Virus record (IMG/VR): IMGVR_UViG_3300021387_000091
Coordinates: 5,979 to 69,978 of that record
DNA length: 64,000 nucleotides
Source: a virus
Lineage: Duplodnaviria; Heunggongvirae; Uroviricota; Caudoviricetes
Strand: one strand, 5' to 3'
Under the pieces are notes generated by a model. The model saw nothing but the letters and a program-made list of their open reading frames with translations, searched no databases and had not been told where the DNA came from. Below, piece by piece: positions 3-32,020 of this stretch; the stretch's first letter is position 1; each line of letters starts with the position of its first letter. A program made the position numbers and the translations under genes.

Positions 3-2939
3 ATACCAGAAACAACATGTGAAAAGTTGCGTAATATTGGTGTTATAGGATATTTTATTGTTAGACAAAAAAGGATTCCAATTACATTATGTCAAGGTTT
101 TGGTGTTGGAATAAATAAGGATTCTTTTATTCCAACCATTAAATACAATAACCAAGGTTATTATGCGGAAAGCTTTATTACAAAGGAATCTGAATCCTTA
201 GAATATAACCCTATAACATCTGATACGTCTGGAACAACTGTTTATGAAAATTCAAAAAATGTAGGTTTTTATTTTAACATTAGTGACCAATACGTAATAG
301 ACGAATTAGTAACATTTATAGTAATTCCAATTGTAACAAGAGATCATACAGAATACACGGTTAAAATAATTGGTCCAAACAAAGATGAAAACGATAAAGT
401 AATTCGTGGAGAAGAAGATGTTGTTTATAAGACAGTAACAGCATATGATCGTCAGCGAGCTATTGATTTGGCTATAGACTATTGTAATGAAAATAATTAT
501 AAACTAATTGATAACTACATACAAAGTACAAATTCCTATAATAGAAATAATTTAAAACAAGAACAGCAACGATTACAAAATGATGTCAGGGATCGTTTTT
601 TAACAGAAAAAGAATTGCAAAAAAATTCATTTGGATTACTTTCTGTAGAAGCTAGTGTAAATCCAACAATTCAATCAATGTTGAACGGTTCAGAGTTTGA
701 AATAAGAACAAGGGTTGGAGCTGCTATGCGTAAAGATAATCAAATATTTACAGCAAGTCCAATATACCCAAGTCACAGTAATAGTAAAACTGCAAAATTA
801 GTATATTTGCCAAGCGGAACACAATTAAAATATGTAGACAAATACGGATTTTCTAATGTGGTTGGAGATGGAATAAATGTAGATCAATTTGGTTTTCTTA
901 AAAATAGAGAAAATTCAGAATATAAGAAAAATCCAGATGTTGTTAGAGGTACTTTTACACCATATATAGGAGGTATATCTGAAAACAGTAATAATTTTAT
1001 AGGTTATGTATCTGATATACGTGTACCACATGACTCAACATATAAAAATGATATTATTGCTAGAGCCAACGATATGTCTGAATATTATGCTGTATCAAAT
1101 AAAATGAGTATATATTACCCTATGGATGTCTATAGAGGGGATTGCTATAAGAATACAGTGTCTATTAGAATGCATAGAAACTTCGTTGACCCAGTTGCTC
1201 CTATTGCTGACAAAATTGTAAAAAAGGATTGTTGAAAGAACAATTATTATGGATATGCTAATATTAAAGGAAAAGATGAAGAAACATCTACAAAAACAGA
1301 TTGAACCGAAATAAATCTAACAGATTTAAATACAGTTTCTCTTGGGCATTGAGTTACATTTAAATGTTTAGCAAATACAAATTTAGGCCTTCGTTCTGAA
1401 GATACATCAAATACGTCAGAAATGGCCTTACTTGGAAATGCTAGAAGTTTTTATCCATTAACAGCAGCATCTACTGTTACTGCAATGAAAGTTCAAGATT
1501 CTACATTGTTAAACGATGGTTATAGTGCTACCGTTGGAAGAAAAAGATATACAATTAAGCCCAAAACACCATATGATAAGAATGAATTTTCTAATAGAAT
1601 TATGTTTAGTAACATCTCTATTACAGATTCGTTTACAAATGGGTATCGTGTATTTCAAGGACTGTCTTATCAAGATTATACAAAGCAGTATGGTGCTATA
1701 ATTAAATTGTTACCTTGAGGAAATAATATTTTCTGTGTATTTGAACATGGAATAGCAATAGTGCCGATTAATGAAAAAGCATTAATGCAAACGACAACTG
1801 ATCAATCTATTCATATATATGGACATGGCGTTCTTCCAGATCAACTTTCTGTAATTTCTCAAGATTATGGTAGTATTTGAGCAGATTCTGTTATTAGAAC
1901 TCCAATTGGAATTTATGGAGTTGACACTACTGCAAAAAAGATTTGGAGATTCTCAGATTCTAATGGATTCGAGACATTATCAGATATGAAAATTCAACGT
2001 TTCTTAAATGATAATATTAATTTAGGACTAACACGGCAAGAAAATCTTGGAATTACAAATGTAAAAACACATTTTAATAACTATAAAGGTGATGTCATGT
2101 TTACATTCTATCATACAAGTTATGATGAAACTAATCAACCAGTTAAGAAAGAATGAAATATGTGTTACAACGAAAGACAAGGTTTGTGAGTAACAAGATA
2201 TGATTGAATCCCAATTTTTTCTGCGAATGTAGACAATGTTTTCTATTCTATTCCTTTAGAGTTATATTCAGATAATAATGATTTTTCTATTTGAAAACAT
2301 GGTAGGACTGGAATAGATTCTTTTGGATTTAGACCAACGTTATGATACGGAAAGCAATATTCTTTTGAATTTGAATTTGCCATAAAAGATCCTGTTGGAT
2401 TACACAAAATATTTGAAAATTTAGTAATAACATCCAATAATGTTCAGCCAAAAGAACTCGAATTTCAAATTATAGGGGATGCTTATATGTTTAACAAAGC
2501 CAGAATTTATCACGACGCTAAAAACATATATGGTAATTATGGCGAAGACAGACCTTATAAAATGGATTGGAATGGCTTTACAAAAGATGATTTTTCTATT
2601 TCCAACTTTAAACCTATGTTTTATAATGCAAGAGTTGAATATGATCCTGTATTAGATGAATATAGTATGATAATATCTCAACAATGTAAGAATAAGGAAA
2701 CATATGGTGTACGATTAGGAAATATTCAATATAAAGAGGATGGATGATATACTAATATAGAACCACTTAGATATAATGTTAAACTTAATCAGCAATCTGC
2801 TACAGAATTTAGTGAATCTGATCCTTTTGCGTCTGCAAAGATCAGAGACAAATGGTTAAAAGTTAGAATTAAATATGCTGGAGACAAATTAGCAATTATT
2901 AGTGGTGTAACAACGTTTGAAAATATGAGTTATGCTTAA
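3..2939 (+). CDS. Tail stabilisation / tail tubular protein (crAss-like), 5'-truncated by the window edge; TGA=Trp
   Basis: ORF fragments at 27, 1422 and 2487 share one frame and are separated only by TGA; the first TAA is at 2937-2939. The C-terminus KIRDKWLKVRIKYAGDKLAII resembles crAss-like stabilisation proteins, and the gene lies upstream of the cargo genes. Confidence 0.7.
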
Positions 2940-5137: not shown

Positions 5138-5151
5138 TTCTTACGATATAT

Positions 5152-5262: not shown

Positions 5263-5267
5263 AAGTG

Positions 5268-5327: not shown

Positions 5328-5351
5328 TATGAAAATAATTTACTATATTTG
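5320..5351 (+). promoter_or_regulatory. Bacteroidota sigma-A type promoter (plus strand)
   Basis: TTTG (5320-5323), 20-nt spacer, TATATTTG (5344-5351), about 60 nt upstream of ATG 5411. It shares the palindrome TTTGCAAA with the divergent promoter P2. Confidence 0.8.
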
Positions 5352-5410
5352 CGGGTGATTAATATGGAAATAAGAGAAGATAATATATAAACTTTTAAAA
5401 ATTAATTTTT

Positions 5411-5710
5411 ATGAAGCTAATTAAGAAATTTCAAGCTGGCGGTCCAATGGGTCAAGACGCTGGTGCTCAAGTTGATAATGGTGCAATGCAAACTGGTGCA
5501 GAACAAGACCCTATGATGCAGATTGTAGAAATGTTTGCACAAGGCCTTCAATCTCAAGACTGTAATCTTTTAGCACAAGGTGCTGAAATGTTTTTGTCAT
5601 TAGTTCAAGAGGCTCAAAGTAGTGCAGAACCAGCAGGACAACCTGTATTTGGCAAAGGTGGAAAAATGGTATCTCGCAAACAAGCAAAACTTCAGCTTAT
5701 TTGCAAGTAA
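5411..5710 (+). CDS. Small crAss-like protein with an N-terminal KKFQAGG motif (99 aa)
   Basis: Intact ORF from ATG to TAA, with its own promoter and terminator. Confidence 0.8.
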   Translation: MKLIKKFQAGGPMGQDAGAQVDNGAMQTGAEQDPMMQIVEMFAQGLQSQDCNLLAQGAEMFLSLVQEAQSSAEPAGQPVFGKGGKMVSRKQAKLQLICK

Positions 5711-5730
5711 TTATTAGATTTAGAAACTTG

Positions 5731-5764
5731 ACTCGGGATTGGGACACTCAGTCCCGAGTTTTTT
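5731..5764 (+). terminator. Intrinsic terminator
   Basis: ACTCGGGATTGGG/CTCAGTCCCGAGT stem (with G-U pairs) followed by TTTTTT. Confidence 0.8.
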
Positions 5765-5777
5765 AATTTATAATCGA

Positions 5778-8700: not shown

Positions 8701-10028
8701 AACTTAGAGGAAATACTACAAAAGAAGTTACAAATACAGAGCAAAGAATTGTTATTCCAGAAAATTCTAAACCTGGACTTATGGATTTAAATGTACCAGC
8801 TGTAGTAGAACAAGTTCCTGTTACAAGAACAATTAAATTACCACTACAAGGTATAGCTTTGCCCCAATGAATAAATGCATTTACTTCTGCAAATTATCAA
8901 CGTAACAAAGATGTTCAACCATCAGGTGTAGTTATGCAACCTTTATATCAAAAGAAAGGTGGAAAAATTATAAAAGCACAATCTGGAACATTAACTGATA
9001 AAGCTATTACTGGAAATTCTCAATTCAAAGCAGTTCAAGATGCTCAGAAATGATTAAAAGAATCTAAGGCAGATGATTGGTCTAAAATAGAAGGTGGTAA
9101 TTCAGGCTCTCAGTCAGATGAACCTGGAAAAGCATATAATCTAGATTTTAATCCTTTAATGAATTGGGCAAGAGCTGGAATATCTATGTTCGGAAGTGAT
9201 AAGCAATTGAAAAATTGGCTAAATCGGCCAAGATATAGAATGCAAGCTCCTTTATTAAATGCTCCAAGATTTGTTAGTTCTGGCGCAGGTGATGCGTATA
9301 GACAGATGGCAAGTAAGCTTAGATTATACAAGCCTATTTCTTCAGATGCTACTGATGTAGATGCTTCACAAAGAGCTAGATCTGAGAAAGCATTAGAGCT
9401 TGAATTACAAGGTGTTTTAGCAGATGCTAATGACTTTAAAGAATATATGCGTGGATTGGATGAATTTAATAATAAAAATATTCTTCAATTAACAGATATT
9501 GCTAATCAGAATCGACAATTTGATTGGCAACACGATATTGAAGATGTTCAAATGAAAAACGCAAATATTGCCGAAAAATCTAAATTCTTTGACCAAGCTG
9601 CTTATGCAACTCAAGATTGATATTCTCGTCAACATGATCTTAAAAACGAAATTGCTGGGATTAATGACTATAATACGGAATTGAACAGATTACAAAATGA
9701 GTATATACTAGATCTTGCTAAGATAAACGCAAGACACAAAAATGATCCAGATAGTGATGCAGCTGCCCAAGAATTAGCCGCTCTTAGGAGTCAACTTCAA
9801 ATGAAGCAAAGAGGATTGGAAATGTATCCAATGAAAGCTAGATTAGCTTTTCCTTTTTCTGCTAAACGTGGCGGAAAAATTGGAAAGGATTCAAAAGTAA
9901 CTTATTCAAGAGATCCATATCCAGAACTGCTAATTCAGAACTCAAAAGACTCAACAAAATTAGTAGAGAAACTGAACGATTCAGTGATAAAACTATTATT
10001 ACAAACAAAACCAATACATGTATCTTAA
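5778..10028 (+). CDS. Large putative ejection/cargo protein (~1416 aa; multiple TGA=Trp)
   Basis: Fragments at 5739, 7011, 7707, 8262, 9159 and 9681 share one frame and end in TGA, except the last (TAA 10026-10028). Hydrophobic Gly/Ala segments (~7915-8290) and GG motifs are present. Confidence 0.75.
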
Positions 10029-11946
10029 AAGGAAGTATCAAGTAGGGGGTATTGCATATACCCCCTATCTTCCTGCTCAAGCCGGTTCTCCACAAGAGAG
10101 TACTTCTAATTCTGGTTCGAGCAGTAAAAGTTCGCCAGAAAAAATAACTGGCACTATAAAAAAAGAAATTGTAGACTTATTAAAAGAAAATGGAATTCCA
10201 AGCGATGTTTCCACTTTTTTAAATACAGCTAATAAGTTTTTGTCAAAATCTCAAGCATTAAGTAATTATTCTATTTTTGGTGGAGACGACGATGATTATG
10301 ATTTAACCGATTTAATTAAAATTCAACAGTTAGTTAATGATGTTAAATATAATAATAATCTTAAAAACGAAGCGCTTAAACAAGTAACAAAAGAAGCGGC
10401 TGGTTCAGAAGTTGCGTTAACGGATTCTGGACATATTTATGCGTATAATTCTGATGGTAATATTGTAAAACTAACGCCAAAAGAATTCAAGGAAAAATCC
10501 AATGATTATCGTGCTATTACAAATAATGAATTACTTTATTTAAGAGAGCATGAAAATGGATTAGCATTTAATACAGGTATATTAAATGATTTAAATAATA
10601 CCATTGGTATGTCTACGATTACAAAGCAGTTGCGTGATATTATAAGTGCGTTTGGCTCTGATAAAGTGGGAGGATATACCACAAAAGATGCGGCTGTTAA
10701 TCGTGGAATGCAGGCTTTAATGCAAGCAGGACCTGATGGTTACTATCAGTTTACAAATGAAGAGGAATTGCGAGATGTAAATAGAGCTCTTCGCTACTTA
10801 TATAACAGTATGTCTGAAAATGCTAAAAATCTTCTTAGAGCAAAGACTGCAGTAGAAGGTGGAGATCCATCTGATCCAAATGACATTTCTAATCTGTTAT
10901 TACAGGCATTATATGAGCATACTTCTAGAGAAACAACTGTTAAATTTGATAAATCCGCATCCGATTATGATCCACTACAAAGTGGAAAGAAAGGTGGATC
11001 TAAAGATCCAGGTGATCAATTAACTCAAAATAATTATTTACAAAGAGTTGGTTCTCTTCGTGGAGATAGAACAATTGTTTCTATTGCTCCAAGAGCAGCT
11101 AAAATTTCAGATACGGCAGCACTTACTGCTCCTGCATTTTCTTTTGGTGCTGTCATTGATAGAAGTAATAAACCTGTTGATAAAATGAGCCTTGCAGATC
11201 TTTTAAAAGAAGGTTGAGCATTTGCAGCAGGAGAACCAAACGATGTTGTATTTGGAAATAAATTACTTAAATCATGAGAACGTGAAGCTATTATGTTTGA
11301 TGATAGTAGTAATTTAACCGCAGTAATGCTTCCTTATACAAATCAAGGTGGACATATTATGCCGGATTTTGATAAATTTGATGCTTTTAATAAACTTCAG
11401 TCAATTCTATCTAATAATTTATATGTTTCACAAACAGAATTAAATCAAGAGGCTAGAAAACTTGGAATCGATCCTTCTGAATTAAATTACGACCAAAAAA
11501 CAAACACAATTACATTTAAGGATACTATGGCGTTTTTGACAGTTAGTGGATACGCTGGTGATGATACTCTTGATTTAAATAAAGAAAATAAACAATGATT
11601 AGAGAAAGTAGATAAATCTGATGGACAACATCTAGCTGATTTCTACAATAATATGGTTAAATTTGGAAAGCTTCGTCCAGCAAAGAAAGGAAATGTTGAA
11701 ATTAAAGGATTCTCTAAATCTGAATCTGGTGATTTTTGGAGAGGAAACATTTTTATTCCTATGAAAAATGCTTTTAATGCAATGAATTTGAGTGGAATTG
11801 GAGAATACGTTCCTAAATCACAAGAAACTGATTTCTATGGTAGAGTTGCAGCAAGAGCACAAGAGAATGCAATGCTTCAATACCTTAAAGAGAATGATCC
11901 AAATTATGCTATAAATTCACAAATAGGGCAGTTTAGAAATGATTAG
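10018..11946 (+). CDS. Putative virion cargo protein (642 aa; TGA=Trp)
   Basis: Fragments at 10018, 11293 and 11653 are in frame; TAG at 11944-11946; N-terminal KRKYQVGG. Confidence 0.75.
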
Positions 11947-14900
11947 TAGTAAGAAAAATGACTGGGTTGCCATTAATTTAAACGCACCCGAAGGAATGTC
12001 TGTAGATGCTTTACATGGATATGGTATTACACCAGATAATACAGGTTTGCAATCTGAAGATTATTATAAGTCCCAAAAGCAAGTTATAAATACATTTACA
12101 GATAAAAATGGAAAATTTGACGAAGAGCGCTTTCATGCCTTTTATGAGAGCGCTCAGCGTTCATATAATGACTATCAAAAGGAAGATTTTACAAAGAAAT
12201 TATTAGATGATATTGAGTCTTCACCTTATGACATATTTTCTCTTGGAGATGCTAACATAATGGACACTTCTGCAATAATGTATAGAAGTAGAGATCCACA
12301 AAGAACAACAATGGGCCTTGGCAATGTTTATGAAGTAGGCACTCCAACCTTCGATGTTAGAGAAGTTGCTCAAGCAAATAAAGCAAGAGATGAATATGGA
12401 AATGTTTTGGATTGATCTCCTAATGATAGAGGTAATCCTTTTAAAGGTTTGTTTAGACCTGCAATGGCACTTGCTACATGAGATGAAGACGAATATGATG
12501 ATAATGGTAGACTTCTACATAAAGCTGGAGATCTTAAATACGATGAAAATGGAGATCCATTTTACGAAAAATTAGGAAAGAGAGAAGCTTACGGTAAAGA
12601 AACATTACATTATTGGGACACTATTACTAGAGACGATTCTGCTTGAAATAAAATAGATTTTATGGATAGTGACGGGCTTACTAAAAGTATTGGTGGTACA
12701 ATCGCGAAAACTGCTTTTTCATTAGTTCCTTATTTTATTCCTGGAGTTGGAGAAGTATTTGGATGAATCGGTGCTTCTGTTGCATTAAGTCAAACATTGC
12801 CAGTTCTTGCTAAAGGTTTGGATGGTATTATAACCGGAACTACTGATAATGAATTCGGAAGAAATATGACTTGATTAGAGAATGTTACTGATAGATTTAG
12901 AACATCTCAATCAAGAGCTTCTATGGGTAAATTCCTTAGTATGGAAAATCTTGGGGATATTATCAGTTCATCTGCTGGTCAATTATTTCAACAGAGAATG
13001 ATTGGACAAATTGGACAAAAACTTGTTAAATCTGGAGGCAATATGTTAAACGCTTCTAAGATTGGACAACGACTATCTCTTGGTTATATGGCTGCTACAT
13101 CTGCAACAGATACTTATCAAACATTTAAAGAAGCTGGAGCTGATGATCGTACTGCTGGTGTTGCCGTGCTTGGTTATATGGCTGGTTTATATGGTTTAAT
13201 GAACGTAGATTATTTCAAGGATATGTTGTTTACTAACACTTGGTTAGATGAAGATATTTCTCTCAGAGATACTATGCACCAACTTGTTAAAGAAACAACG
13301 ATAGAACCTTTTGAGGCTTTCGCCGCTTCTACAAGTAAACCAATGACTGAATTAGAAAGACGATTTGCAAGAACTAAACTTTATAAAGCTATTCAAGATA
13401 AAGTTGCTCCAACTTGGAAAAACTGGATAGAGTCTGCAAAAGCTGCTAGACCTACAATTCATCAGCTAGATAACGCTATTACTAAAGAAGGCGAAAAGGC
13501 TGGAATTTCAGCAGGAATGAGAGCTTCTATGTACCTTTCTAGAGCTATGAATGAAGGTATAGAAGAAACTATGGAGGAAGGTCTTACAGATGTATTTAAA
13601 GCAATAACACTAGGATTAGATTCTTTAGGAGTAAAAGTTACACAAGATGATAAACAACTTGATTTCGGACTTTCTCTACAAGATATGATGCTTCGTTATG
13701 CTTCGTCTTTCGTAGGTGGTGCTATTGGCGGTGCAGTATTTGAAGGATTTAATCATTGGGAAGGCGGACCTTATGATAGTTTACTTGAAAAATCATTAGT
13801 AGAACGTCTTGTATGGTACGAACGAAATGGATATGATAAAGAACTTAGAGCTCGGATTGATAATCTTTATCGTAAAGGAAAACTAGGAAATAAAAATCTT
13901 TCATCTAAAGGAAAATCTATTAAATCGGTTGATGGCAAAGGCGAAACCGTTGTGTTTGGCGAAGGAAGTGAATCTGACAATCAGAATCTCTTTGTTTATA
14001 ATGTTATTAATAGTTATCTTGACAGACTAAATAGCGCATTGGCCAACAACGGATTGTTCTCTACTGACAATGAAATCTTTACTAAAATTTGAGAATCTGT
14101 TAGAGAAAAACGCGGAAACAACGACGACGATCCCGAAGTAAAGCTTTATCATTTTTTGGAAGACATTGATACAGCAAAAGCATTAACTATTCAAGAAATG
14201 GGATTCTTAAATGCTGTTAAAGAGGATGCAGATAAACTTGCTTATGATATTCTTAGAAAAGATGGAGAAATAAAGAAAGTTAAAAACGATATTCGTAAAC
14301 GTAATAATATTACTGATGCCAATCGTTCTGAGGAAGATACATTGTTTAAAAACAATCAATATCTTAAGACTCTTGAAAAAGAACTTTCTGATATGAAAAA
14401 AGCCTGGGATCAAATCCTTAATGGAGAACGTAATGGTTATTACATGGGATATGCTGCTTTAATGGCAAATGGTACATATCTTGATCTTTATGATAATCCT
14501 AATCCAGCCGCAGATGTCTTTAAGAATTTACAAGAAGTTTTTCCTAAAACGGGTATTGAGAACTGGACAAAATATACTTACGGTTTGGAATTTGAGTCTA
14601 TAACCGATGAAGATCTCAAGAAGAAAATTCAAGATGAATATTCTGCTTATTTGAATTTATCTGGTAAAGATAAAATGCGTAGAATTTATGATATGCATAT
14701 TCAATTTTCAGAGAAGTTCGCTCCAGATATTATGGCAATCAATGAGAAATTTGCAGAAAAGAAAACGGTAGATCCAGTTACATATTTTACTGAATTTTTA
14801 GGTAAATACTCTGATTCTATTGGTCACACTGTTGGAAAACAAGTAGCTTTGGATTTAACAGAAGCATTTAAACAAGTTGATAAGTCAAAACTTCCAGAAC

Positions 14901-17900
14901 AATTAGCAGCGTATCAAAAAATGATGCTTCTTGAAGGTGCTTTAAATCAAGTTTTTCCGGATATTGCTGGATATGATTCAACACAAGATAAACTTAATTT
15001 TATACAAGCACTTAATCAATCTCTTACAGATGATAATGCAATTATGGATACAAAAATTATCCGTAATGGTATTATGAGAAGTATTGTAGATAAAGATATT
15101 AAGAGAATTGCAGATGAAAATAAAGCAAATAGTCCAGATAGTGTTAATTCTAAATTAAATAATAGGCTTGGAGAATTATCCAAAACTCTTATAAATTCCA
15201 CATCTGAATTAAATGTTTTCTTAGATAGTCTTTCTGACGAAGAAATTGATTCTGAACCAGCATTTAAAGATTATATTGATTCTATAGATAAAGAACAATT
15301 TTTATCTGAGAATGTTGAACAACTTGGGCAAGCAATAGAAAACATACTTCAAGATAAAAATAAGTTACTATCTGTTGGTTCAGAAAGAACTATCTTAATG
15401 AGTAAACTTAATGATATTCTTGATGCTATTGCTCGTAATAGTGATAGTGTCCAAAGTCTTTATGAAAATGCTATTAAATATCTTTCTGAAAATTCCGGAT
15501 TAACAGAATCTGAAGCAAAGTCTTTTATAGACAATGTTTTGTTCCCAGATGGAATTAATCTTGTAGATTTTACTGTTCAACAACAAAAAATCGAAAGAAA
15601 TAATAATTCTAATGCCATTGAAGAACTTCTTGAAAAGTTTGATATTTACACAGGAGGCAAGATTTACAATGCCATAAAGCTTTTAAGAGATCAAGAAGCT
15701 TATATGGAAAGACTTGCTAATCCAGAAGAATATTCTATTACAAGTAAAACCATTGAAAAAGAACTTGAAACAGCATTATCATTCTTAAGAGTAATTAGCG
15801 CTATTATCAATAGTACAATTGATGGTACAAATGAACAAATAAATCTTAGTAGAGATGGTGAGCAATTAGCTGTTACTGATGAATCTTTAGCACCACTTTA
15901 TAATAATCAATTACTTGACGTTATAAATAGAATAAATATTCTATTGGAAACTTCAAGAAAAAATCGGCTTAAGACTACAAAAGTTCAACAAGATACAATG
16001 TTGAATATGAATAAACTTCGTATTCAGTCTTTAAAGAACATTGGAAAAATTAATTTCGATGGTATTGAATTAGATTTTGAAAAGATTTGGGCTGATACTG
16101 GATTTAGTCTTTTTGATTTTAAACTTGATAAATCTAAAGATGCAGATAAAGCATATCGTCAATTCCAGTCAGAAATATCCAAACAGCTAAAGCCAATTCT
16201 TGCTAAATATCTTAGTACTGGAGAAATTTCTAAATTTATAAAAGTTCTTGTTGATAAATTTGGAACAGATGTTTATAGACAAGATCCTGGTGTATTTAGT
16301 GATGATCCAAATATTGGGATTACTCCATATTCTAATGTTACTTATTTGTTAACACTTGCTAGTATTGATGCTGCAGAATTTGATGCTCTTTGAAAGTCTG
16401 TTACTGGAGAAAATGCAGATTTAATTCCACTTTCTAGTCAGGAATATCTTGTAAGAGAAGCTTTTGCACATATTATAGACTTCAAGAATGGAAATAACAT
16501 TTTTGATTCTCTACATACGTATATCCAATCCAATTTCCCAGATTCTATTTCCCAACATAATAAAGATTATGTTAAAGGACGTGGTGTTGCTAAGAGGTTT
16601 ATAAATATTGATGGTATTGGAGGCACTGGTAAAACAACTGGTGTTGATTATTTGTTAGATAAGTGCTTAAAGAAATATTACGATGGAGTATCATCTACTG
16701 CATCTAGTATTACTCTTTCTGCTGCAGAGAATCTTCATTCTGCATTAAGATTAGGAACGGATAATATTAAACCAATAACAATCCAAGATATTTTTAACAC
16801 ACTTTCTAAGGATTCTAGTGGTAAAGTTGTTTTTGATTTTGATACAGCTTATGAAACCAATGGAACGTCATATCAACTTAAGAGAAATGCTGATGGTGAG
16901 ATTATAGATGGAAAAGGAAATAAGTTTAGCAACATCAACAATATTGATTTCTTATTTAATTCAAAAGACGGTCTTAGAGTTCTTTATATCGATGAATCTG
17001 GATTGGTAAATCGTCCTCAAATGGAGTTGTTACTTGAACTCGCTAGTAGATTTAATTTCTTTGTTGTTGGTTCTGGAGACGTTCTTCAAAATAAAGCACA
17101 AATAAAAACAAAGAAAGGAGATTATGATCAAACAGGTATTGAAGATCTTGTTTATCATAGAACTCCATCTTTAACAATTTCTATGCGTTCTGAAAATAAT
17201 GGTAAATATAAAAATACAGAAGCCATTAAAGACGTTTTAAGAAAAGTTAATAAGAATTTCTTTGTTGATCCTTCAATTCCAATTTCTAAGTTAAACGATG
17301 CAGTAAAAACTGCTATTAGTGAAGCCTTAGGTTCTACTTCTGAATTGAATTTAATTTATGCTGATTCTAATCTTGCAGGTGACCGTTTAATAAGAAGTTC
17401 AGAAGTTTTGGATTTCTCGAAAAAAATGCTTACTTTTGTAAAAGAATTAACCGAAAATGAGACCGATCCATCTAAGAAACATCAATTGGCGATTGTTGTT
17501 GATGACGAAACAAAAGCAAATAATTATCGAAATCAACTTGCTAGTTTTGGAGATTCTGTAGTTGTTATTGATTCAAAGAAAGTTCAAGGTAGAGAATATG
17601 ATTATGTTATTGTAGACAAACCATTTAATGATACTAATCCATATGATGCTCTTACCGATTTCTATACAATGATGACTCGCGCTAAGATAGGTAGTGCAAT
17701 TGTTGATGATAATGGCGTTATTAAGAGTCTTAATATAGGTACTCATCCTGATGATACAGCATCAGAACCTGTTTTAGGTGCAGATCCTGAAACAAGAGCT
17801 CAGTTGTTTAAAGAGTATTCCGAATGGCGTAGAGGTCTTATGGAAGATATTCCAGATTTTGTTAGAAAGACTACTACAAGTACACCTGCTGCTACTTCTA

Positions 17901-20900
17901 CTGGAGGTTCAACTCCATCTGGAGGTAATACTTCTGGAGGTGGCACAGGCACTCCAACTGTTGTTCTTAACGGTCCAGCAAAAGTAGATACTGAATTAGC
18001 GGAGCGTTTAAAGAGTAAAAAAGAACGTGACGCTTATTACACGCAACAATTACTTAATGGTAAAGCAGGACATCCATATTACCAAAAGTTGTTAGAAGCT
18101 AGAACAGCCAAAGTAGGAAAAAGCGGATATATTGATTTTGATACTTTTATATCAGAGTTAAAGGATTTTGATAACGATTTCTTTGAAACACACCCACTCT
18201 CTATTTTAAATGGAAAAACAATTGCAGGAACTGATTCTAAATTAGCTTATAGAAGTATAATTTCTGTAATTGCAAGGGCTATTTTAAATAACAAAGAAGC
18301 GAGTGGACGTTCTCAATTTATTCAATCAGCTACAGATTATCTAAAAGAAAAACTAAATAAAATTGGTTTATCTTCAGATACTTTCTGTACAGATCTTGCT
18401 TTAAGTTTTGAAAATGGAGGTTTCTTTGTATGTAATAATGGCCATATTTTCTATACATTTGAAACAAGTGGTAGGCAAGTTGCAGTACCAATTTCTGCTT
18501 ATACAGATCTTACATTAAATGATTCTTACTTTGAAAATCTTGAATTTAACATCGAAATTGGAAGTATTCCTGTAAGTACAATCGGTGAAGTTTTCGTTCC
18601 TGTTATTGATACATTATCCGAAATAGACGGAGTGGTCTTAGATAAGAATGGAAATCAATACGTTGGTGTAATTACATATACTGATGAACTTAAAAATGCC
18701 GCTTTAAGATTTTTTAAAAATCAAGATGATAGTGATGCGAGTAAAAGAGCTTCTGCAGCATTTAAATATTTACAAAGAAACTCTGGTAAATCAATGCTTG
18801 CTGTTTCAACTGCTTCGTCTCAATTTGAAGATGGTGATTCTGTATTTAATGTAAATTGGGAAGGTGGTAAACCTACTTCTGCAACAAATAAAGAATATGA
18901 TACTAAAAATTTTGCTCAAGAAACAGCAATGATTGGTATACAACAGATAACCAACATTCAAGATTGGTTTAGAGCAGTAAGTATTTTATACCGAGCCGTA
19001 AGACATAAGGATGACATTTCGGAATCAGATAGTGCGTGATTAGATGGATATTTTAATGAAGAGCATGTACTTGATAAATTCAATGCGGTAACTGCTGAAG
19101 ATCGAGTTAATATTGCTGCAAACTATAAAGTACTTGCTTCCTATAAAGTGTTAAATAAAGAAGCTGTTAATGGTCTTAGTTCTGCAATATTTAGATTTTT
19201 AAACTCAGAAAGAATTAACGAAAACTTTAGAGCAAGATTCTGGCAGAATTTTACTAAATGATTAGGTGACAAAAAATCAAACGATGATACAAGAATTCAT
19301 CGTAAAGGATTTGGAATTAACTTTAAAGATGCTGATGGAAATGCTTATATCTTTTCTGTTGTTCCTAAACCAAATCAAACTGGTTATGATATTCTATATC
19401 AAGACAGTAACAATCCAACATGACAAACTGTAGCAAGTAATCCAAGCGCAGAAATAAATACTCTGTTTTCCGGAACTAATTTTGATTTTGTTCAAGCTAT
19501 TACTAAAACACTTTCTGAAATAAGCAATAGTAATATAGCCACAGATGAAATTAAAAATCTCGTTTCATCAACCAATAATAATCTAGATGATTCTTTATCA
19601 AATGGTTCTATCATAGTATTTCCTATTGATTTATATACAGATAGTGAAACTGAGCAGATTGTTGGTTATTATTCTCCTTTTGAAACAGATATTTATAATT
19701 GAATGGTTCAGGGAGATACTGGCCAAGTTGAAATTGAACCTGGTGTTTTGGATGCATTATCTGAATTCTTACAGAATGATACAATCTTTAAGAATAATAT
19801 GTATAGAAATATTGCTGCAACTCCTAGAGAGGATGGTTTATCTGGATGGGCTCAATCTAAAATGGCATTAAACGGAGAAGATATTTATACAGATGTAACA
19901 AAGGTTATTGCTCCATTATATGCTCTTGGTACTACTTCCAAAGTAGATCCAGAAACAGAAACAGGTAAACAAATGCAATCTAAAGTTGGAAACTTCTTTG
20001 CTTTAAACAATGGAGATACAGGTCCTTCTCTTAACATAGACGAAGTGAATCCTCCAACTTTAAACGGAACAATTATTCATTTTGCAGATGGACAACCTAA
20101 AGTAAATAGAGATTGAATTTCAGAATTTACAACATCTGACGGAGATGGAGGTTCAATAGAATCTTTAAATGTTGGAAATAATACTATTACGCTTTCTAAC
20201 GGAACGTCTTATACACTTAGCAATGACGGATTAAACGCTCTATTAACTATTCCTGCTGTAAAATCTATAATTGATAAAAATCTTATCAAAGATGTTTCTG
20301 GAAAAATTACAATTGTTGGAAATACCATTTCTGTTGCATTAGATGGTGGTGGAAAGCAAACTTTCTCAAATGCCTATCTTATAGGAGTTAATGAAAATAC
20401 GTATAGCTTTGAAACTTCGTCTGGAGTAATTAGTGTCACATTAAATGAAGAAATGGCTAATAAACTTGGAAGAAGAACTCGTCAAGAAGCAATTAATCGT
20501 GGTATTTATTTAGGAGAACATCAAGATGAACTTGGGACTTCGTTCCATGTTTACTATACTCCATCAGATTTGATTTTAATTGAAGGAAATGATCCATCTA
20601 ATCCGACTCAAACAATTCCAATTAGTTCAATAACACCAACTGCAACAGCACTATATGCAGGAGCAATTAATTTCACAAATCCAGAAATTATTAACAATTT
20701 TGCAAAAGTATTTAACCCAAAACCTGATTTTTCAAAAGCGTCTAAGACAGATGTTGGTAATGAAATAATGCTTATTGCAGATTCTCCTGTAATTAACGGT
20801 TCTTGAATTCAAGGATATACAGATGATACTATCGATGAAGAAAAGTCTTATAGAATTCTTGCATATGATAATAATAGAATAGGAATTTATACAGACGATA

Positions 20901-21673
20901 ATTTATCTACATTTACTTGGATTTCTCGTAATGATAAATTTGATAGTAATGAAATTAAAGGGGATAAATCTAACGATGTTATAAATCTTATTGAAGGTAC
21001 TGACATTGATTGAAGTAATCCTGCAGAAGCTATTCAGCAAATTATTTCTATAGCAAACGAAGATGAAGTTACTAAATTTGCAGATTTAGAATCTAACGAT
21101 GATACTCTTGTACAATGGGTTTGACAAAATGGAACTATAGAATTATCAGAACAGCCGGATATAGAAATTGAAGGAATTTCTGCTAAATCTAGGAGAGCTA
21201 TTTATAAATATCTCAAAGGGATTATTGCTGGAGAAATTTCAGATGTTAAGTTCTTCAGAGAAGGTTCATTTGAAAATGAAATTACAGTTGAATTCAAGGT
21301 AGATGGTAGAACACAACAGGAAACTTACAAGGTTGCTGGAGATAGAGTTGTTCCTCTAAAACCAGAGGTTAAGGACGCTTTTGAAACAATTGAGGCAGAA
21401 TTTAATAACGCTTTTAATTCTGCACAAAATAGGTTCAATGAACTTCAAAATCAATTAGGTGTAGGAGTAACAGCAGATATGCAGGCTGAAATTCAAAATG
21501 AGTTAAATGCCCTTTCTATTCAGTTAAATACAATGCAGGCTGTTAAGGATGCTATTGCTGATCCAACAATTAATAAGAATTCAATTATATCAAAGTTAAA
21601 ATTATTAGATGCTGCCACTAGAAGGCTTGTATTACAATACTATAAAGCAAATAACGATAAAAATAAATGCTAA
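11939..21673 (+). CDS. Giant putative ejected protein (~3244 aa) with a central SF1 (RecD/Dda-like) helicase domain
   Basis: Seven fragments in one frame are joined by TGA; TAA at 21671-21673. Motifs: GIGGTGKT (16613-16636), TIQDIF, YIDE (~16991), GDVLQ, LTISMR, KKVQGREYDYVIV, YTMMTRAK. Confidence 0.8.
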
Positions 21674-21676
21674 ATT

Positions 21677-24600
21677 ATGGCGTGTGATGTATTAAGACAA
21701 TATTCAAAGGATGATTATTTTAACATATATGCTGAACTTGAATTAGCAGAAGGTGATCCGATTGCTCTTTCAGATGTGTTTGAGAGTATACATCAGACAT
21801 ATGAACGATCTATAGCGGATGCAATACAAGCTGCTATTGAGAATGGTACATTTGATGAAAATTGGGATATTAAACCGGGGACTTTACCATCCCCGGTTCA
21901 AACCCAATTTAATGTAAATGGTGCTAAGAATTCTGAAATAGAACCAGATCAACTATCTGATTATTATTACAATAAAAAGAATGGTTATGTTCGTCTTAGT
22001 AATATGACGAAGAGATTTTTTGAAGACATTATTTCTAAGACAGTATTTAACAAAGACACAGGAAGCTTTTTTAGACCAACAACAAACTCTATAAATCAAG
22101 CTTTGTATGATTATAAAGTTGAATTACTTAATAAACTTTGGAATTTTACTGGAAAATCATACATGGCAGAATTAGTTGCTAATGAAGATAACCTAACATT
22201 AGTTATTAGTAGGACTCTATCGGATTTTGCTACAATGTCTACAATAGATGGTGCAGATACTATATGGGATGATTATATTATCTTAAAGCAATTTGATAAG
22301 CTTTTGAATGATTATGCACCATTTATCAAGAAGGATGCTGCTTTTGAGAATACGAATTATCAAAGTAAGAATATGTATAGATGGGATCCTTCCGGTACAT
22401 ATAGACAAAGTTGAACAGATTCTGAGGATTCAGATATTTCCAAAACAACATCCCCTTTAGTTAGATTACTTGCTGATTATTTTACTTGTGCAGATGCTAG
22501 AGGAAATGAAATAAATAGGCCAATCGGTTTTACAACATTTAATATTGCAATGGCTACACTTGCAAAGTGAATGCATGAAAATAGGCAATGATTAGATGTT
22601 CAAGAAGTCAATAGAGATATTAGAAAGAACGGTTTATCTGCAGATTTAGGAAAAGCGATTGATGTTTATATTGCACATGCTAATCCAAATGATTCACTAA
22701 AAGAAGTTCTTTATGGTATTAAAAAGCATGTCTTTAATAAAAATAACGCTATTCCTCTTAGCATTAAGCAAGCATTTGCCAATCAATTCTTTATTACCGC
22801 CAAATACTCTTATATGGCATATCGTCAGAATTATGAAGAAGGTCAATTTGATATAAACGGACAGTATTTGGAAGATTCGTTTGTTAATATAAAAACAATG
22901 AATCTTATGAAAACCTTCCAAAACAAAGTTTGGTTTTATCAATGAAAACCAGAATTATTTGCAAGGCTTAAAAATAAACATGGAATTGTAACATCTGTTA
23001 AAGATGGAATTATAACAATTAAATTTGATAGTACAAAAGGTTGGGGAGATGGATTTAATATTACTGTTACTAGAGACGGAGAAGGAATTTCTATTAGAAT
23101 ACCCGATACCAAAGTTATAGATGATAATGTAATGATTTCATTAATTCAAGATACACTTGATATTCTTATTCCTTCTGATTATCAAAATGTTCTTGATGCA
23201 ATGTCTGTTTCAGCACCTGTGCCAGCTACATTATTTAATACTTTTATTCAACCTATAGCATTAATGCTTGCAGCTTCAGAGGAAGGCTCTGATTTTCCTT
23301 CTGTTTTCAGTTATAACGAAGATTCCGAATTAATTAATACATATCACTTTCAACAAAGATTTATACAATCTGGTAAATTCCAAAGTATTGTAGATGGTAT
23401 TAATGACCTTAATGTACTTAAAAATGGTGAGGGAAACAATCTTCCTATTTATCAATTAGCTCCTGCTATATTTGATATTTTTACAAATATCGACGAAATA
23501 GCAGATGCCGCGAATAAGGATAAAACAGGCAAATCTGTTGGAGGAATTACTTTAGAAAGTACTGTTTCTAAAGAACTTGGTAATTGATGGGCAGCTAAAG
23601 AAATTTCTAGTGTTTTTGGAGAAAATCTTTTTGTAAAACATAGAGATTTACTTAAAAAAATTATTGTTCGCTCTGATATTAAAATTGGAAATATAACAAA
23701 ATCATCTGATAAACTTACAGCATCTGAAGTTGCCTCTGTAGCAATCTTTAATGATTTTTATCAAAATCTTGTAAGAGAGCCAGATGCAAATAATCCAGAC
23801 GCATTAAGTGGAACCATTCTCATTCAGCCTATTACTTACTCTGATAAGAAAACACACTTTCTTCCTGCAATTGACTTAACAAAGCTCTATTTGTCTGTTG
23901 GTTCTGATCGTGTAAAAGCAATTGATGTTTTTAGAAGACTTGTTAGACCTGATTTAGAAGGAAGATATAAATATGTACAAGCCGTTCAAAATGAAATAGC
24001 GAGAACTAGAGGCGAGAAAACAAAAGCACAAATATATAACCAGTATATCAGATTTAGAAACGCTATTCAAAATGCAGATTATGATTCCATAGAAGTTGTT
24101 GATAAATCTGGTAGAGTTTGGAATGGGAGCGATCTAATGAACGTCTTATTAAAAGATATTGTTTCTCCGAACGTAAACAATTATTCTAATTTTGATTCTC
24201 TTACTGGATTTAAGGCGGTATCTAAAATTCTTTCTAATTTAAATCAATTTGAAGATCCAATTAAGTTACTTCGTGCAATCTTTAAGAGTGCAGGGACAAT
24301 GCTTAATGAAGATTTTGATATCATTCAACTTAAGAATGGAAATTTACAAGGAAACGAATCCCTTTATTTTGCTGCTACAACATATACGCCTCAAGGTATT
24401 GAAAATTACTTAAAACAAGAAAAACTTAAATTTGCATTTGACTTACAGGAATATGGTGTATCAATGGATGTATTAACACACCCTGAATTAAGAAGGTATA
24501 TAGATACATTCTCAAAGGATACACAACGCATATGATTTGATCCTCACTCTAAAATAATGCGTTTATTTAGAGTGTTTCAAACTGAAGCAGATGGAAAATT

Positions 24601-27600
24601 AACTGAAATATTTCCGACTCAAGCTGACTTTGAAAACGATGTATTTAAACACAGGTCAGATTTAACTGTACAACTTAATCCAATGCTTGAAGGATTTTTC
24701 CTAGCAAATTCCCTATTTGGAAGTCAATTTAATGATGTAATGTTTGGTGGAACTGAAGGATACATTCCAAAGTTTTCAGGATCTGTTGATTTTGATAATG
24801 CCAATCAATCTATTATTGGACAAATGATGGCATCTCGTCTTGCTAATGAATTTAAACGTACTACCTATGGTGGTGCTGTTAAACGTAAATTTGCGACAGG
24901 TCTAAAATTTGGCGTTGCTAATAAGATTAGATTTTCTATTGTTGAGGATGATGAGCCAAATCTTTCTACATTAAGAGGTAATACAGAAGGACAAGTAGCA
25001 CAAGATGGTTCCGGTTGGGTTCTTCCTTTCCTTGGCAGAATGATTAATAAATCTCTTGTAGATTCTCCTGTTGGAGATGTTAGAAAAACTATTGCTGGAT
25101 GAGTTGATCCAAGAACTGGTACACAAGTTCACTTTAAATGGGCGGAAACAACAATTACTGCTGATATGCGTCAAAAAGCACAAGGTAATGGTTCTGCTGA
25201 AGTAATGTATCGTAAAGGAACAAGTGCTTTTGATATCACAAATAAATTTAAAGCGATAAGAGATTTAAATCGTTATTATGATATTAGGAAAAATGCTCCA
25301 GTTATTATTATAGAAGACGAACAAATAACAAGAACAAAACCTATATATCGATATGACTTAGATTCTGGTCAGTATTGGAAACTTGAAGCTATCAGAAACA
25401 CAGATGCTGGTTTTGAAACAGCTTGAAGTCTTGTTGATAAAAATGGAGAATTAGTCTATCGAGATGGTAAATCTGTTAAAGCTGCTTGAACAACTCAAAT
25501 TCATACTTTATATGATTTAGATCAAGCTCTTGGTGGTGCTTTTGTATATGAGCTTGATGAAAATGGAGATATGGTTACATCTGAAGGAGTTCATGATATT
25601 CTTACTAATATTATTTGTACTAATGATATGAAAGAGGATTTCATTGGCTATATTGTAAATCATTCTTCTGCAAAAGCTGGTGCAATTAATGTTAATGATT
25701 ACTCTACATTAAATGACGATGATACAACACTTAATCATCACTATTTAAATGCAACTGGTATTGGTGTTCAGATGGATGCTGACCACGAAATGGATTTTGC
25801 ATCTGTTACGGAAATGTCACAGATGGTTTCTCTTCTTACACAAAGTGGTACTAATATTGAGTTAGTAAACAAAATTTATTCGGACATTGGACAAGTTGCT
25901 GCAGAAGCCATGCGTGATATTTTAGCTGCTGTAGAAAGCGATGATGCTGATATTTATCGAATTATAGGTAAGGCGCTTCTTGATACATTCGATTCTGGAA
26001 GAAAAGAAGAAATTGGTCTTGCTCAAGCTTTTATCAGAAATGCGCAAAATGCAATTCTTAAAGAGAGAGGTTTAGATAACATAATTCTTCCTTATTCTGC
26101 AGAAAGTGTTAGAGGTTCATTTGTTGCAGCTGTTACTTCTTTGATTAACAAAAAGGGTATTAAACGTAAATATGCTGGGTTCGGTGGCGTTCAGGTTCCT
26201 GCCGATAAAACTATGCAGCATTATCGTTATCTAGCAAATGGAAAAGAAATAATTACCGATTATGTAGGTTTGAGAGATAGAATTAGACCAATATTACAAC
26301 AAAACGGAATTACTTGGGAACAAGCTTCTACGCAACAAATCATAAACGGTAAATCCAATCCATTCATAATACCAATAAATCAAAAAACTGCTCAATTTGA
26401 AGACACAGTTGTTTATAAATTAAAAGGTTCTACTGAAGAAGGGACTGTTCTAAAAATCCAAACAGCTGAAGATTTAGATTTAGTCCATAATCTATTAGAT
26501 CCTAATTTATATGACATTTCGCTTTGAACAATTAAGCCAAGAGAGCTTGCACAAAGTGATATTCGATTTAATTCTGAATTTGGAGAATTCTCTGAATATG
26601 ACATTGATGCTGTTCGTGCATCGTTCTATTTAAACGACTTAATTGATGTTGCTGAAGGAAAGAAAACGTTAGAATCTATTCCGTTCTTAGAAAGAAAACT
26701 TGCTGTGCTTAATGCAGCAATAGTTGATTCTGATTTAGTAACTCCTGATGGTACACAGATAGCAAGCACTACTGATTTTACTGTACTTAATGCAAATATT
26801 CTAAGAAATCTTAAAAAAGTTTGTGTTCATAAAGCACAAGAAATCTTTAGAAATATTGGAAAAAATGATATTCCTATACAAATGTCAATGGTTAATGACG
26901 ATATCAATCAAACTAGAGAATTAACAATTGATTGAGGCGTTATGCCTTATATGATTAAAGTTGATAGGAATTACAAAAATCAAGTAATGCAGGTTATTAT
27001 TGGACGTAGAAACTTTGCTAAATTTGGAATCGGAAAGGGTGACAAGCTTGCAGACATTAAAGAACAAGGTTCTAAATTCTTCTATAACAGATTGTTAGAA
27101 AAAACAGGTACCATTGATAAAGTAAAAACACAGATTCCGATTTCGCGATTTGATGGTGTCTTTCAATTAAGTAACGGTGAAAATATGCTTGTGTTAGTCG
27201 GAGATCAAAGTGACAACTTACAACATTTTAATCCTTCTGATGATTTTGTTATTTCTGATAATGCAGTATCATATAAAGGACAGATGATAGTAGATAATAC
27301 TAAACTTAAAGGTCTTGCAAAAGTAACAGATTTTAATTACTTCACTTATGTAAATGATACAACTGGAGAATTGATGCCTGTTATAATGATTCCGGACTAC
27401 GATGTTTTTGACAGAATTGCAACATCTGAATCTGTTACATCTTCTTTATATGTGTATAATGGAACTAATTGACTTGATGCTATAAAACACAAATATGCTT
27501 CTAAATTTAAGGATGATAAATTAATTGAAGATTTTACAACAGATTCTGGAGTTTTAATTAATAATAATCCTTCCGAAACAATTTATGAAGAATTAAATAA

Positions 27601-30600
27601 GAACGAACATAAAATTAGAACAAAAGCATTAAGCCGCAAAGCAGATACGCTTTATAGAAATTTCTTAACACAACTCAACTATATTCAAACACGTATTCCT
27701 TCTCAAGCTATGCAGTCTACCACAAATATAGAAGTAATAGACTTTGCAGATACTGATACCAATTATATTTGAGTACCTAAAATGATATTTAAATTACAAG
27801 GAAGTGATTTGGATATTGATAAGGCGTATTGTATGGGTTATGACGTAGATGATTCAGGAAATATCTATGCTATGTCAGATTTAATATATAAATCTAAATA
27901 TAATGTAGATGATATCCTATCTTTACCTAAGCCCACATATGGCAGTATGCGTTTTAATTATACTGGAGAAGGATCTGATGTTCAATACAATGTCACAAAG
28001 GATATTGATGAGATAATGATTAACGGAGGTTCTGATTTTGAAATTTTACAATACTTAATTGGATTAATGCAAAATAATCCCGGAAGAACTGTATCTATTC
28101 AGTATGCTCCTCAAAGCAATGCTTTTAGAGACAGAATCAAAAATATTGTTGACGATGTTAATATACACGAAAACTCTTTTAGATCTGAATCTGAAATAGA
28201 ACATGCCCTTCGTAATCAAGTATTATCTTCTGCAAGAAGAGTAATGAATAATCCTGCATCTCAGTTGGACGCTTATACACCTATTGCTATGAAAGAGCCT
28301 CGTGATGCTTCTAAACTAAATACTGCATTAGGTTCTAAAGAAAAAGAAATGACTCTAGATAACGCAATGTCTATCTTTATTATGCAAATTCAGAATATGT
28401 CTGGTAAGGAAGTTATTGCTATGACTGCTACCGGTATTAAATCATACTTTATGGTAACAACATACTTTAATACTCTAGCAAAACAGATTGAAAACGATTT
28501 GGCACAATACATTAAAACAAGAGATATTAATCTCATGAACAATATTGTATCTGCTTTAAATGAAATGACATTCAATGGTAAGCTAGATGATACAGAAGTT
28601 CCTTATCTATATACATTTGCTAACATTAATTTCTCAGGAATTCTTGACATAATAAATAGTACACCAGAGTTAAGAGAATCATTAAGGTATGTACCTTATA
28701 CAACACAACTAGAAATTACTCCTGCGAATAGTAGTTTTGAAGTATATGTTAATAATGGAACATTAGAACTAGTAAGACTAATAGAGGATTTGAATCAAAG
28801 AGCTAATGGCAACATTTGACAAATTAATGATAAAGGCAATTATGAATATTTTGTTGTTAATGCGCCGGATTCATTAAGTGCGTTGCTATCAGCAGCAACT
28901 GATAACGCTAAAGAGCTTATTCTAGACAAACTTAATGCAACATCTAAATTTGCAGACATTTATACAACGCTATTGTCACAAGGCGTACCATTTATAAAAA
29001 TTGCACAAATGATGACAAATAATGCATTTAGAATTGTTGCAAAATACGCTCAAAGTAATATATTTGATACAAGTACTTCTGGTTTTAGAGTACAAAATGC
29101 TATTGATTTCGTTCTAAATAAAAAATCTCTTCCAAATATTAGTCAGGGATTGTTTGAAAGGTTCCTCACGGATAATTTTGGAATAACCACCGAACATAAA
29201 CAGAAAGGATTCTTAAAAGCTATTTTTGAAGAAGGATTGAAATTTAAAGACTCTAAAGATAAGGTAAGTAGTCTTCCAGAATTAATTTATGAAGAATTTC
29301 TAACAAGAACTGGACAAACAGAAACTGAATTATTAGAATCTTTAAAAGATAGAAATCTATTATTAAACACTAATAAAAATTCTGCATTAATTATTGGAAC
29401 AATAATTGAAAAAGGAAATAATAATTGGAAAAATGAAATTGCAAGAATTATTCTTGATATGTTTAGTGATATAGACCATCAATCATTAGATGGAGTTACT
29501 GTTGCAGATTATTTGAAATCTGTATTATTACAAAATTTAAGGCAAGGTATTCAGAATTATGCAAATAATACCAGTTCTCCTGTAAATGATAATAATCAAC
29601 AATGAGAACTAGAGCCTGAATACGATCCAATTGAATCAATGATGGATATGAGTGAAGAAGATTGAGAAAATGCTGTTCAATCTAATGCTCAGAGACAGGC
29701 TTATTGATTTAATGGCCCAATCAGAGGAAACGAATTAACAAGACTTTATCGTTATGCTGTACAATATTTTATTCCAAAAACAGAACTTTGAAATGCTTTA
29801 AATAAAGAAAGTCAACGTAAAGCAAAAATGGACTTTGAAAAGTTAAGTTCTCAGATTCTTTATGCTGCACAAGAAATGAAAATCTTAGGTTCAATTGGCA
29901 GTATCAATCAAGGTTTAAGATCTAAAGATTTTGATGAATACAAATTTGCAGCAAATATAGCTAAATTCATAAATCAAGCTTATATTAGTAGAGGTAATGG
30001 AGAAATTACAGAAGAATTTGATTTGTTTAGATTTTTAGGCGATAAAGCATATCATGACAGACACATTAAATATTATGATAAAGTTAAATCAAGTATAAAC
30101 ATTCTTAGAGCATTAGATGCTACTGCAAACTTTAAAGAAATGTTTAATTATGTTTTAGTGAATCGCAAAGTAATTGAGCATTCTGCATCTATTAAACTTG
30201 AAAGAAGTATTGCAAAGTCGTTTGTTAATTCTGTTTCTAAGATTGATGAAAATAGCAGCATTAATCGTGGTTCAACCCTTGTTTTAAATGATCTAGAATT
30301 TAGAATATTAAGTCAATATGTTAGAGATTCTATTGTTTATAACTTCTTTAGAAATCTTGATCATTTAAGATTTGATGTTCCAGCTGGCGAACAGTATTAT
30401 GATCCAACTAAAACAACAACAGGTGAATCAGAGTTAATAAATGCTCGTTCAACACGTTCATTTGATATGAGCAATATTCATAATCTTGCTACATTTAAAC
30501 ATTTAATGGATTGATATATTATTCCAAAACTTCAAATGGATACAAGATTTAAAGATAACGCTTTTATCAAGAATCTTACTAGAGATAGATTTACAGATGA

Positions 30601-32017: not shown

Positions 32018-32020
32018 TAT

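Follow-up and report, generated by a model that had tools for sequence, protein, structure and literature searches.

The window analysed here is a 64,000-nt stretch of an IMG/VR virus record (IMGVR_UViG_3300021387_000091), whose source genome is a complete record, 176,795 bp long and bounded by direct terminal repeats. Published work assigns genomes of this type to the Zeta group of crAss-like phages, which have genomes of 145–192 kb and recode TGA or TAG, chiefly in late genes. Decoding TGA as tryptophan opens the entire plus-strand block at positions 1-36682, including a giant open reading frame (ORF) of 3,244 aa with 15 in-frame TGA codons. The standard bacterial code splits the region of the giant into ORFs of 389, 745 and 795 aa, and translating TAG as glutamine brings no improvement of its reading frame. 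The main features of the block are as follows:

27..2939, plus strand: tail muzzle protein, C-terminal part (the window start cuts the gene), Pfam crAss_MUZ at 1.6e-20
10018..11946, plus strand: 642-aa protein, Cys-free, in the position of cargo protein 2 in crAss001
11939..21673, plus strand: giant ORF, 3,244 aa, TGA read as Trp
21677..32017, plus strand: virion-RNAP-type giant, 3,446 aa, catalytic DLDID at nt 27806-27820, Cys3 invariant, Cys3445 next to last
32021..36682, plus strand: third giant, 1,553 aa, Cys at position 3; its syntenic counterpart in phage Lera is labelled 'exonuclease V'

Judged by its profile match, the muzzle gene marks the block as a predicted crAss-type tail and cargo module. 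Between the muzzle and the giant come a DUF192 protein, one of 1,429 aa and the 642-aa protein, and searches of the neighbouring proteins against PHROGs and Pfam returned nothing beyond the muzzle and DUF192. The giant shares its first 8 nt with the end of the 642-aa ORF before it, and a spacer of 3 nt separates the giant from the RNAP giant, in which the segment GSDLDIDKAY matches the catalytic segments of the virion RNA polymerase of phi14:2 (GSDFDIDKMY) and of crAss001 gp50 (GSDFDVDKLY). The same gene order is seen in four other contigs with distant family members (L001, L004, L005 and L006), one of which uses the standard code. Replication genes are found elsewhere in the genome, on the opposite strand, and mostly avoid TGA.

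Along its length, the giant can be divided into five parts:

11939..14788, plus strand: N-terminal region, residues 1-950, the best conserved part, mostly alpha-helical, with Gly/Ala-rich, weakly hydrophobic helices
14789..16420, plus strand: middle region, residues 951-1494, poorly conserved according to the conservation profile
16421..17752, plus strand: predicted SF1B helicase core, residues 1495-1938, with two RecA-like domains and a conserved N-terminal helical lead-in
17870..17959, plus strand: Ser/Thr/Gly/Pro low-complexity linker, residues 1978-2007
17960..21670, plus strand: C-terminal region, ~1,240 aa, without a recognised domain; the last residue, Cys3244 (codon 21668-21670), is invariant

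At the other extreme of the protein, residues M1, K6, N7, D8 and W9 are invariant across 11 orthologs. An AlphaFold2 model of the N-terminal region, of moderate confidence (pLDDT 72), shows long helices and looks soluble. In Foldseek searches it had no significant match in the PDB, and in BFVD it matched orthologs named 'RecD-like protein' or 'Helicase'. A likeness of this model to ABC-transporter helical domains was dismissed as evidence (probability 0.3 or less, E above 0.1). The initial annotation had raised the possibility of a membrane-anchored helicase, an idea that found no support: the Kyte-Doolittle mean of the Gly/Ala-rich N-terminal segments reaches at most 1.45, and the modelled region is helical and soluble-looking.

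The predicted helicase module and its conservation

The initial annotation had described a complete SF1 helicase within the giant, followed by a Ser/Thr/Gly linker. Both descriptions stand, with the seven motifs that it named occurring once each, in the right order and where it had placed them. The numbered SF1B series, from I to VI, is likewise present in the giant with each motif found once and in the correct order:

16613..16636, plus strand: motif I (Walker A), GIGGTGKT, K1565 invariant
16985..16996, plus strand: motif II (Walker B), YIDE, D1685 and E1686 invariant
17075..17089, plus strand: motif III, GDVLQ, Q1717 invariant
17171..17188, plus strand: motif IV, LTISMR, R1750 invariant
17576..17602, plus strand: motif V, KKVQGREYD, G1884 invariant
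17663..17686, plus strand: motif VI, YTMMTRAK, T1910 and R1914 invariant

Several profile and structure comparisons bear on the class of this domain. In Pfam, the excised domain exceeds the gathering cut-offs of UvrD_C_2 (31.1 bits against 27.4) and AAA_30 (28.8 bits against 27), the latter by a small margin that is lost on the whole giant, where the score drops to 24.4; UvrD_C_2 is matched in all 12 of the orthologs compared. PHROGs returns 'Dda-like helicase' (5.6e-9), and a 34-member family profile searched against PDB sequences retrieves RecD (1.8e-9), Upf1, a nidovirus helicase, Pif1 and Dda. The AlphaFold2 model built from the same 34-member alignment (pLDDT 92.7, pTM 0.90) displays two tandem RecA-like domains in the SF1B-type arrangement, with predicted beta-hairpins around residues ~139-148 of the model, at the expected position of the 1B pin, which together with the SH3-like 2B would make up the SF1B accessory domains, and a mostly helical stretch between motifs IV and V. 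RecD, Dna2 and Dda rank first in the Foldseek comparison that had been suggested as a check of the domain. RecD proper was considered and rejected, as the model of the exodeoxyribonuclease V alpha subunit (TIGR01447) scores 17 bits against an equivalog cut-off of 310. Given these matches in Pfam, PHROGs, PDB and Foldseek, and a RecD score far below its cut-off, the domain is best described, on sequence and predicted structure, as a divergent SF1B-type helicase module, for which 'RecD-like' is a loose label. T4 Dda, DSH9, Deinococcus RecD2 and Pif1 share 12–18% identity with it and differ in standing alone as proteins of 400–750 aa, whereas the module of the giant is internal to 3,244 aa. Direct phmmer searches of PDB sequences gave no matches for the helicase giant, for the RNAP giant or for the initial 500 aa of the 1,553-aa protein, and the family profile matched the 176.8-kb genome nowhere else.

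Such labels were already attached to some orthologs, a point on which the initial annotation had been unsure. The ortholog in the Zeta phage Lera (ORF 191, GenBank PV725988) is listed as 'RecD-like protein' in Table S1 of PMC12386605, and two UniProt orthologs in BFVD are named 'RecD-like protein' (A0A8S5RTY8) and 'Helicase' (A0A8S5TKT5). These labels are automatic or table entries, given with no analysis or discussion, and a literature search returned no discussion of a helicase in crAss-like virions or travelling with the polymerase. The Lera gene occupies the same genome position, in a series formed by the muzzle, a DUF192 protein, a ~630-aa protein, the giant, RNA polymerase pieces and the 'exonuclease V' giant, but its giant, at 2,781 aa, is shorter, and a homing endonuclease interrupts its polymerase gene.

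In the family to which the giant belongs, the helicase active site is strictly conserved. A word-based search identified 11 orthologs of 3,224–3,293 aa with 40–95% identity, and an exhaustive phmmer search of 1.84 billion representatives matched 88 clusters, among which there was no cellular helicase. All matches longer than 2,000 aa carry the helicase at ~1,300-2,000, and the shorter ones resemble fragments. The seven catalytic residues K1565, D1685, E1686, Q1717, R1750, G1884 and R1914 are kept in 46/46 full-length giants and in every fragment that spans them, and they stay invariant while overall identity falls to ~23%. In IMG/VR, where the N-terminal region alone was used as the query, 218 relatives were found and 80 loci were examined; wherever the sequence reached far enough (79 of 79 loci), a helicase lies 4–5 kb downstream on the same strand with the seven residues intact, and this also holds for a divergent sub-clade whose domain is more compact. 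Degeneracy of the motifs in orthologs, which had been put forward as grounds for doubting the helicase, is hence excluded by both surveys. The position of the domain is also fixed, with an N-terminal region of 1,275–1,660 aa before it and a C-terminal region of 650–1,335 aa after it.

Among 50,697 GenBank phage records, a tblastn search with the domain yielded one match, the unannotated MT835470.1, and the same search with the N-terminal region yielded MT835470.1 and MT835492.1. MT835492.1 recodes TAG and has the giant split into two ORFs (1,542 and 1,556 aa), the second of which carries the helicase, indicating that the helicase half is able to exist as a separate polypeptide. A profile search of proteins of 206–816 aa for stand-alone close relatives recovered only RecD-type enzymes, at 5e-10 and weaker, and none of 100 family proteins fuses the helicase and a DxDxD polymerase in a single polypeptide. 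No further Pfam or PHROG family was found in the giant or its 11 orthologs. Membership of the polyvalent proteins, which combine several unrelated enzymatic domains, was rejected, the helicase being the only recognisable domain in the giant and in these orthologs.

Likeness to cargo proteins of cultured crAss-like phages

In phi14:2, the muzzle (gp082) is followed by gp079 (593 aa), gp078 (1,797 aa), gp077 (RNAP) and gp076, all with structural annotations based on MS/MS. In crAss001, the muzzle (gp44) precedes cargo proteins gp45 and gp46 and then gp47 (2,341 aa); gp47, gp49 and gp50 have been detected in virions and are assumed to exit through the tail partly unfolded. The helicase giant resembles phi14:2 gp078 in lying directly upstream of the virion RNAP gene, and crAss001 gp47 in following cargo proteins 1 and 2, although the RNAP genes of crAss001 are on the other strand. 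All three proteins are large, helical and almost Cys-free, with a C-terminal Cys facing Cys3 or Cys5 of the polymerase. Mass spectrometry has found phi14:2 gp078 and crAss001 gp47 in virions.

The distribution of cysteines at protein termini is an observation of the present analysis, not taken from the literature. The helicase giant contains four Cys in 3,244 residues, one of which is the last residue, and a Cys lies within five residues of the C-terminus in 44 of its 45 relatives, while Cys3 of the polymerase giant is invariant in 18 orthologs. Among the phi14:2 proteins, gp078 ends in its sole Cys, Cys3 and Cys2179 occur in gp077, and Cys3 occurs in gp076. Among those of crAss001, Cys2339 is the sole Cys of gp47, while Cys5 and Cys2404 are present in gp50 and Cys5 in gp49. 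The phi4:1 virion proteins gp038, gp037 and gp035 obey the same rule. This pattern equates the giant with gp078 and gp47 better than sequence comparison does. Full-length, N-terminal, C-terminal and helicase HMMs, together with hhalign, revealed nothing significant between the giant and the cargo proteins of phi14:2 and crAss001. In Foldseek, the N-terminal model weakly matched phi14:2 gp078 over its first half (E 1.2e-3, probability 0.89, TM 0.14), and the N-terminal-region HMM scored 17 bits over ~450 residues of crAss001 gp46, a match that was provisionally treated as compositional.

The synteny with a cargo block verified by mass spectrometry and the shared cysteine signature suggest, by analogy, that the helicase giant is likely packaged and ejected, and it is probably injected together with the polymerase. 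Once in the cytoplasm, a Cys-Cys link between the giant and the polymerase would probably be reduced, so that it need not imply joint action there.

Searches with Pfam and the family profile found no helicase in the cargo giants of phi14:2 and crAss001, nor in the MS-verified structural giants of phi4:1, which lacks the RNAP. Since the cargo giants of these three phages carry no helicase, the module is an addition of the Zeta lineage and not the general missing factor of crAss-like virion RNAPs. The proposal of the initial annotation that the helicase supplies a missing initiation activity consequently fails as a general answer, and is taken up below for the Zeta lineage only.

Possible roles of the helicase giant

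The RNAPs that crAss-like phages carry in their virions work well on denatured or single-stranded DNA and barely use native duplex in vitro, and the question addressed here is how they start on an entering dsDNA genome. The background invoked by the initial annotation holds on this point: phi14:2 gp66 transcribes DNA when it is single-stranded or denatured, and hardly native dsDNA, and is packed with the products of two adjacent genes. QDE-1, a eukaryotic relative of gp66, needs a helicase (QDE-3) and RPA, and the N4 virion RNAP has a similar need that is supplied by host gyrase. Both enzymes are like the crAss-type polymerase in being inactive on native duplex and in having another factor expose single strands. 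Their helpers are, however, separate cellular proteins and not a virion-delivered phage protein, so that the link to the helicase giant is by analogy.

We tentatively propose, as a plausible reading held at somewhat less than even confidence, that the SF1B motor works on the entering phage genome and supports early transcription by the co-delivered polymerase, which for the Zeta lineage is the most economical hypothesis. In the scheme that we infer, which involves packaging, ejection, ATPase activity, unwinding, polarity and a functional link to the polymerase, the giant would be the form that the RNA-polymerase-associated cargo giant, found directly upstream of the virion RNAP in crAss-like phages, takes in the Zeta lineage. 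It would be produced late, as TGA must be suppressed for its frame to be read, and would be packed in the capsid, threaded through the tail before or with the DNA, and refolded in the cytoplasm. The Dda/RecD2-type SF1B helicase in the middle of the giant would then act as an ATP-driven 5'-to-3' translocase on single-stranded DNA, with activity and polarity presumed from its class, and would open the duplex, providing a template for a polymerase that prefers single-stranded DNA, and/or strip RNA off the template. A more elaborate version, which we consider doubtful, would have the helicase giant, the virion RNAP and the third giant, perhaps a nuclease, joined by their terminal cysteines into a three-part thread in which the helicase serves as a promoter-melting or template-stripping factor. 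Such a machine, if real, would be a virion-borne substitute for the help that N4 obtains from host gyrase and SSB, and QDE-1 from QDE-3 and RPA.

A large lineage, abundant in gut and rumen, has built a conserved helicase into the protein most likely to travel with its polymerase. If the proposal is true, this would be the first SF1B helicase to serve as phage-ejected cargo, and the feature opens a clean in vitro test of template access by a crAss-type virion polymerase. The impact is limited by the absence of the helicase from the cultured model phages, by the uncultured status of the lineage and by the fact that the domain had already been annotated automatically. Some considerations count against transcription support. 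On the one hand, the phages with an ssDNA-dependent RNAP that have been studied experimentally lack the helicase, so that the polymerase is able to function in vivo in its absence. On the other hand, an SF1B motor requires a 5' single-stranded loading site, and the entering genome is duplex.

Sequence alone does not tell a transcription role from rival roles. The labels of the syntenic Lera ORFs, 'RecD-like protein' and 'exonuclease V', evoke an ejected helicase-nuclease pair formed with the 1,553-aa giant, similar to RecBCD, AddAB or Dna2, that would degrade host DNA, act in counter-defence or process genome ends, with any support of transcription being incidental. The presence of RecD, a part of RecBCD, and of Dna2 among the top Foldseek matches agrees with such a pair, as does the anti-restriction role of polyvalent proteins of the P1 DarB kind, which are injected and contain helicase modules (Iyer et al., 2017, PMC5512222). 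DarB differs in combining an SF2/SNF2-type ATPase with a methylase, whereas the presumed partner of the helicase giant is the virion RNA polymerase. TraI, an SF1B helicase that is transferred along with DNA, is likewise a distinct case, being a conjugative relaxase that uses a type IV secretion system and moves with single-stranded DNA; neither a methylase nor a relaxase domain was found in the helicase giant. We regard the helicase-nuclease pair as unlikely: Pfam, PHROGs, NCBIfam and PDB sequence searches detected no nuclease domain in the 1,553-aa protein, the RecD equivalog score is the 17 bits (cut-off 310) reported above, and the helicase and the putative nuclease reside on different proteins with the polymerase between them.

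An ejected helicase might instead translocate on the DNA and pull the remaining ~177 kb of the genome into the cell, the other possibility that the initial annotation had entertained. In phage T7, genome import is done by the T7 RNA polymerase and the host RNAP. The large genome (176,795 bp) fits an added need for active import, Zeta genomes being ~1.7 times the size of those of the helicase-less crAss001 and phi14:2, and the model of Bayfield et al. expects the protein in the cell before the DNA. SF1B enzymes, however, travel along single strands and unwind duplexes, and do not pump duplex DNA, import would need a stable membrane anchor, for which no support was found, and the virion giants of phi4:1, with a genome of 146 kb, have no such helicase, all of which makes a DNA-entry motor improbable. 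It also appears quite unlikely that the giant, whole or as a cleavage fragment, remains inside the infected cell for late replication, recombination, packaging or late transcription, or is packaged as a structural passenger. The split giant of MT835492.1, with the helicase in its second ORF, and the lack of any match to the helicase profile in the rest of the genome are compatible with such a role, but the domain has a fixed position in a protein that matches virion proteins verified by mass spectrometry in its termini and in the place of its gene, and the replication genes lie apart, on the other strand, mostly avoiding TGA. Lastly, a catalytically dead structural relic is very improbable, as the seven catalytic residues are invariant in ~125 diverged copies in which the surrounding identity drops to ~23%.

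Terminal cysteines and gene spacing in the cargo block

The three giants of the cargo block are poor in cysteine, with four residues in the 3,244-aa helicase-bearing giant, six in the RNAP giant and five in the 1,553-aa protein, and four of these lie at or near protein termini:

21668-21670, plus strand, Cys3244, C-terminal end of the 3,244-aa giant
21683-21685, plus strand, Cys3, N-terminal end of the RNAP giant
32009-32011, plus strand, Cys3445, C-terminal end of the RNAP giant
32027-32029, plus strand, Cys3, N-terminal end of the 1,553-aa protein

These terminal residues are located at the ends adjoining the next giant, so that cysteine faces cysteine. The 399-, 334-, 1,429- and 642-aa proteins encoded upstream of the giants contain no cysteine at all, and the virion proteins of phi14:2, crAss001 and phi4:1 verified by mass spectrometry (MS) follow the same terminal-cysteine rule. 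The genes encoding the giants are closely packed:

11939-11946, plus strand, 8-nt overlap between the end of the 642-aa ORF and the start of the 3,244-aa giant
21674-21676, plus strand, 3-nt spacer between the 3,244-aa giant and the RNAP giant
32018-32020, plus strand, 3-nt spacer between the RNAP giant and the 1,553-aa protein

This tight arrangement suggests that translation of the cargo genes is coupled.

The 1,553-aa protein and virion proteins of other crAss-like phages

Searches of the 1,553-aa protein (32021-36682) against Pfam, PHROGs, NCBIfam and the sequences of the PDB yielded no match; its counterpart in the Zeta crAss-like phage Lera is labeled 'exonuclease V' (PMC12386605). Neither RNAP nor helicase was found in the MS-verified giants of the Epsilon-type Cellulophaga phage phi4:1 (L011), one of which, gp041 (L011 39751-41970), carries an N-terminal phage tail lysozyme domain (Pfam 5e-32).

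The HMM of the family's N-terminal region matched crAss001 gp46 (cargo protein 2) over ~450 residues, with 17 bits and an E-value of 7e-7 in a set of 13 sequences searched with filters off. The match, which pairs P0002 residues ~850-1270 with gp46 at positions 4508-6112 of the crAss001 locus (L002), could reflect either coiled-coil composition or a remote relationship.

Variation in the helicase-bearing giant

In the TAG=Gln recoded MT835492.1 (L007), the giant is encoded by two ORFs overlapping by 19 nt, with the helicase at residues ~102-467 of the second:

9806-14431 and 14413-19080, minus strand, ORFs of 1,542 and 1,556 aa

The gene may be genuinely divided in this phage, or the break may stem from a frameshift or from misassembly.

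A divergent sub-clade of IMG/VR relatives (L068, L069, L078 and L083-L087) encodes a more compact helicase, positioned at about 14.2-15.1 kb in each locus and scoring only ~65 bits against the family profile. Most of the insertion that separates motif Ia from motif II is apparently missing from this helicase, yet all catalytic motifs are retained.
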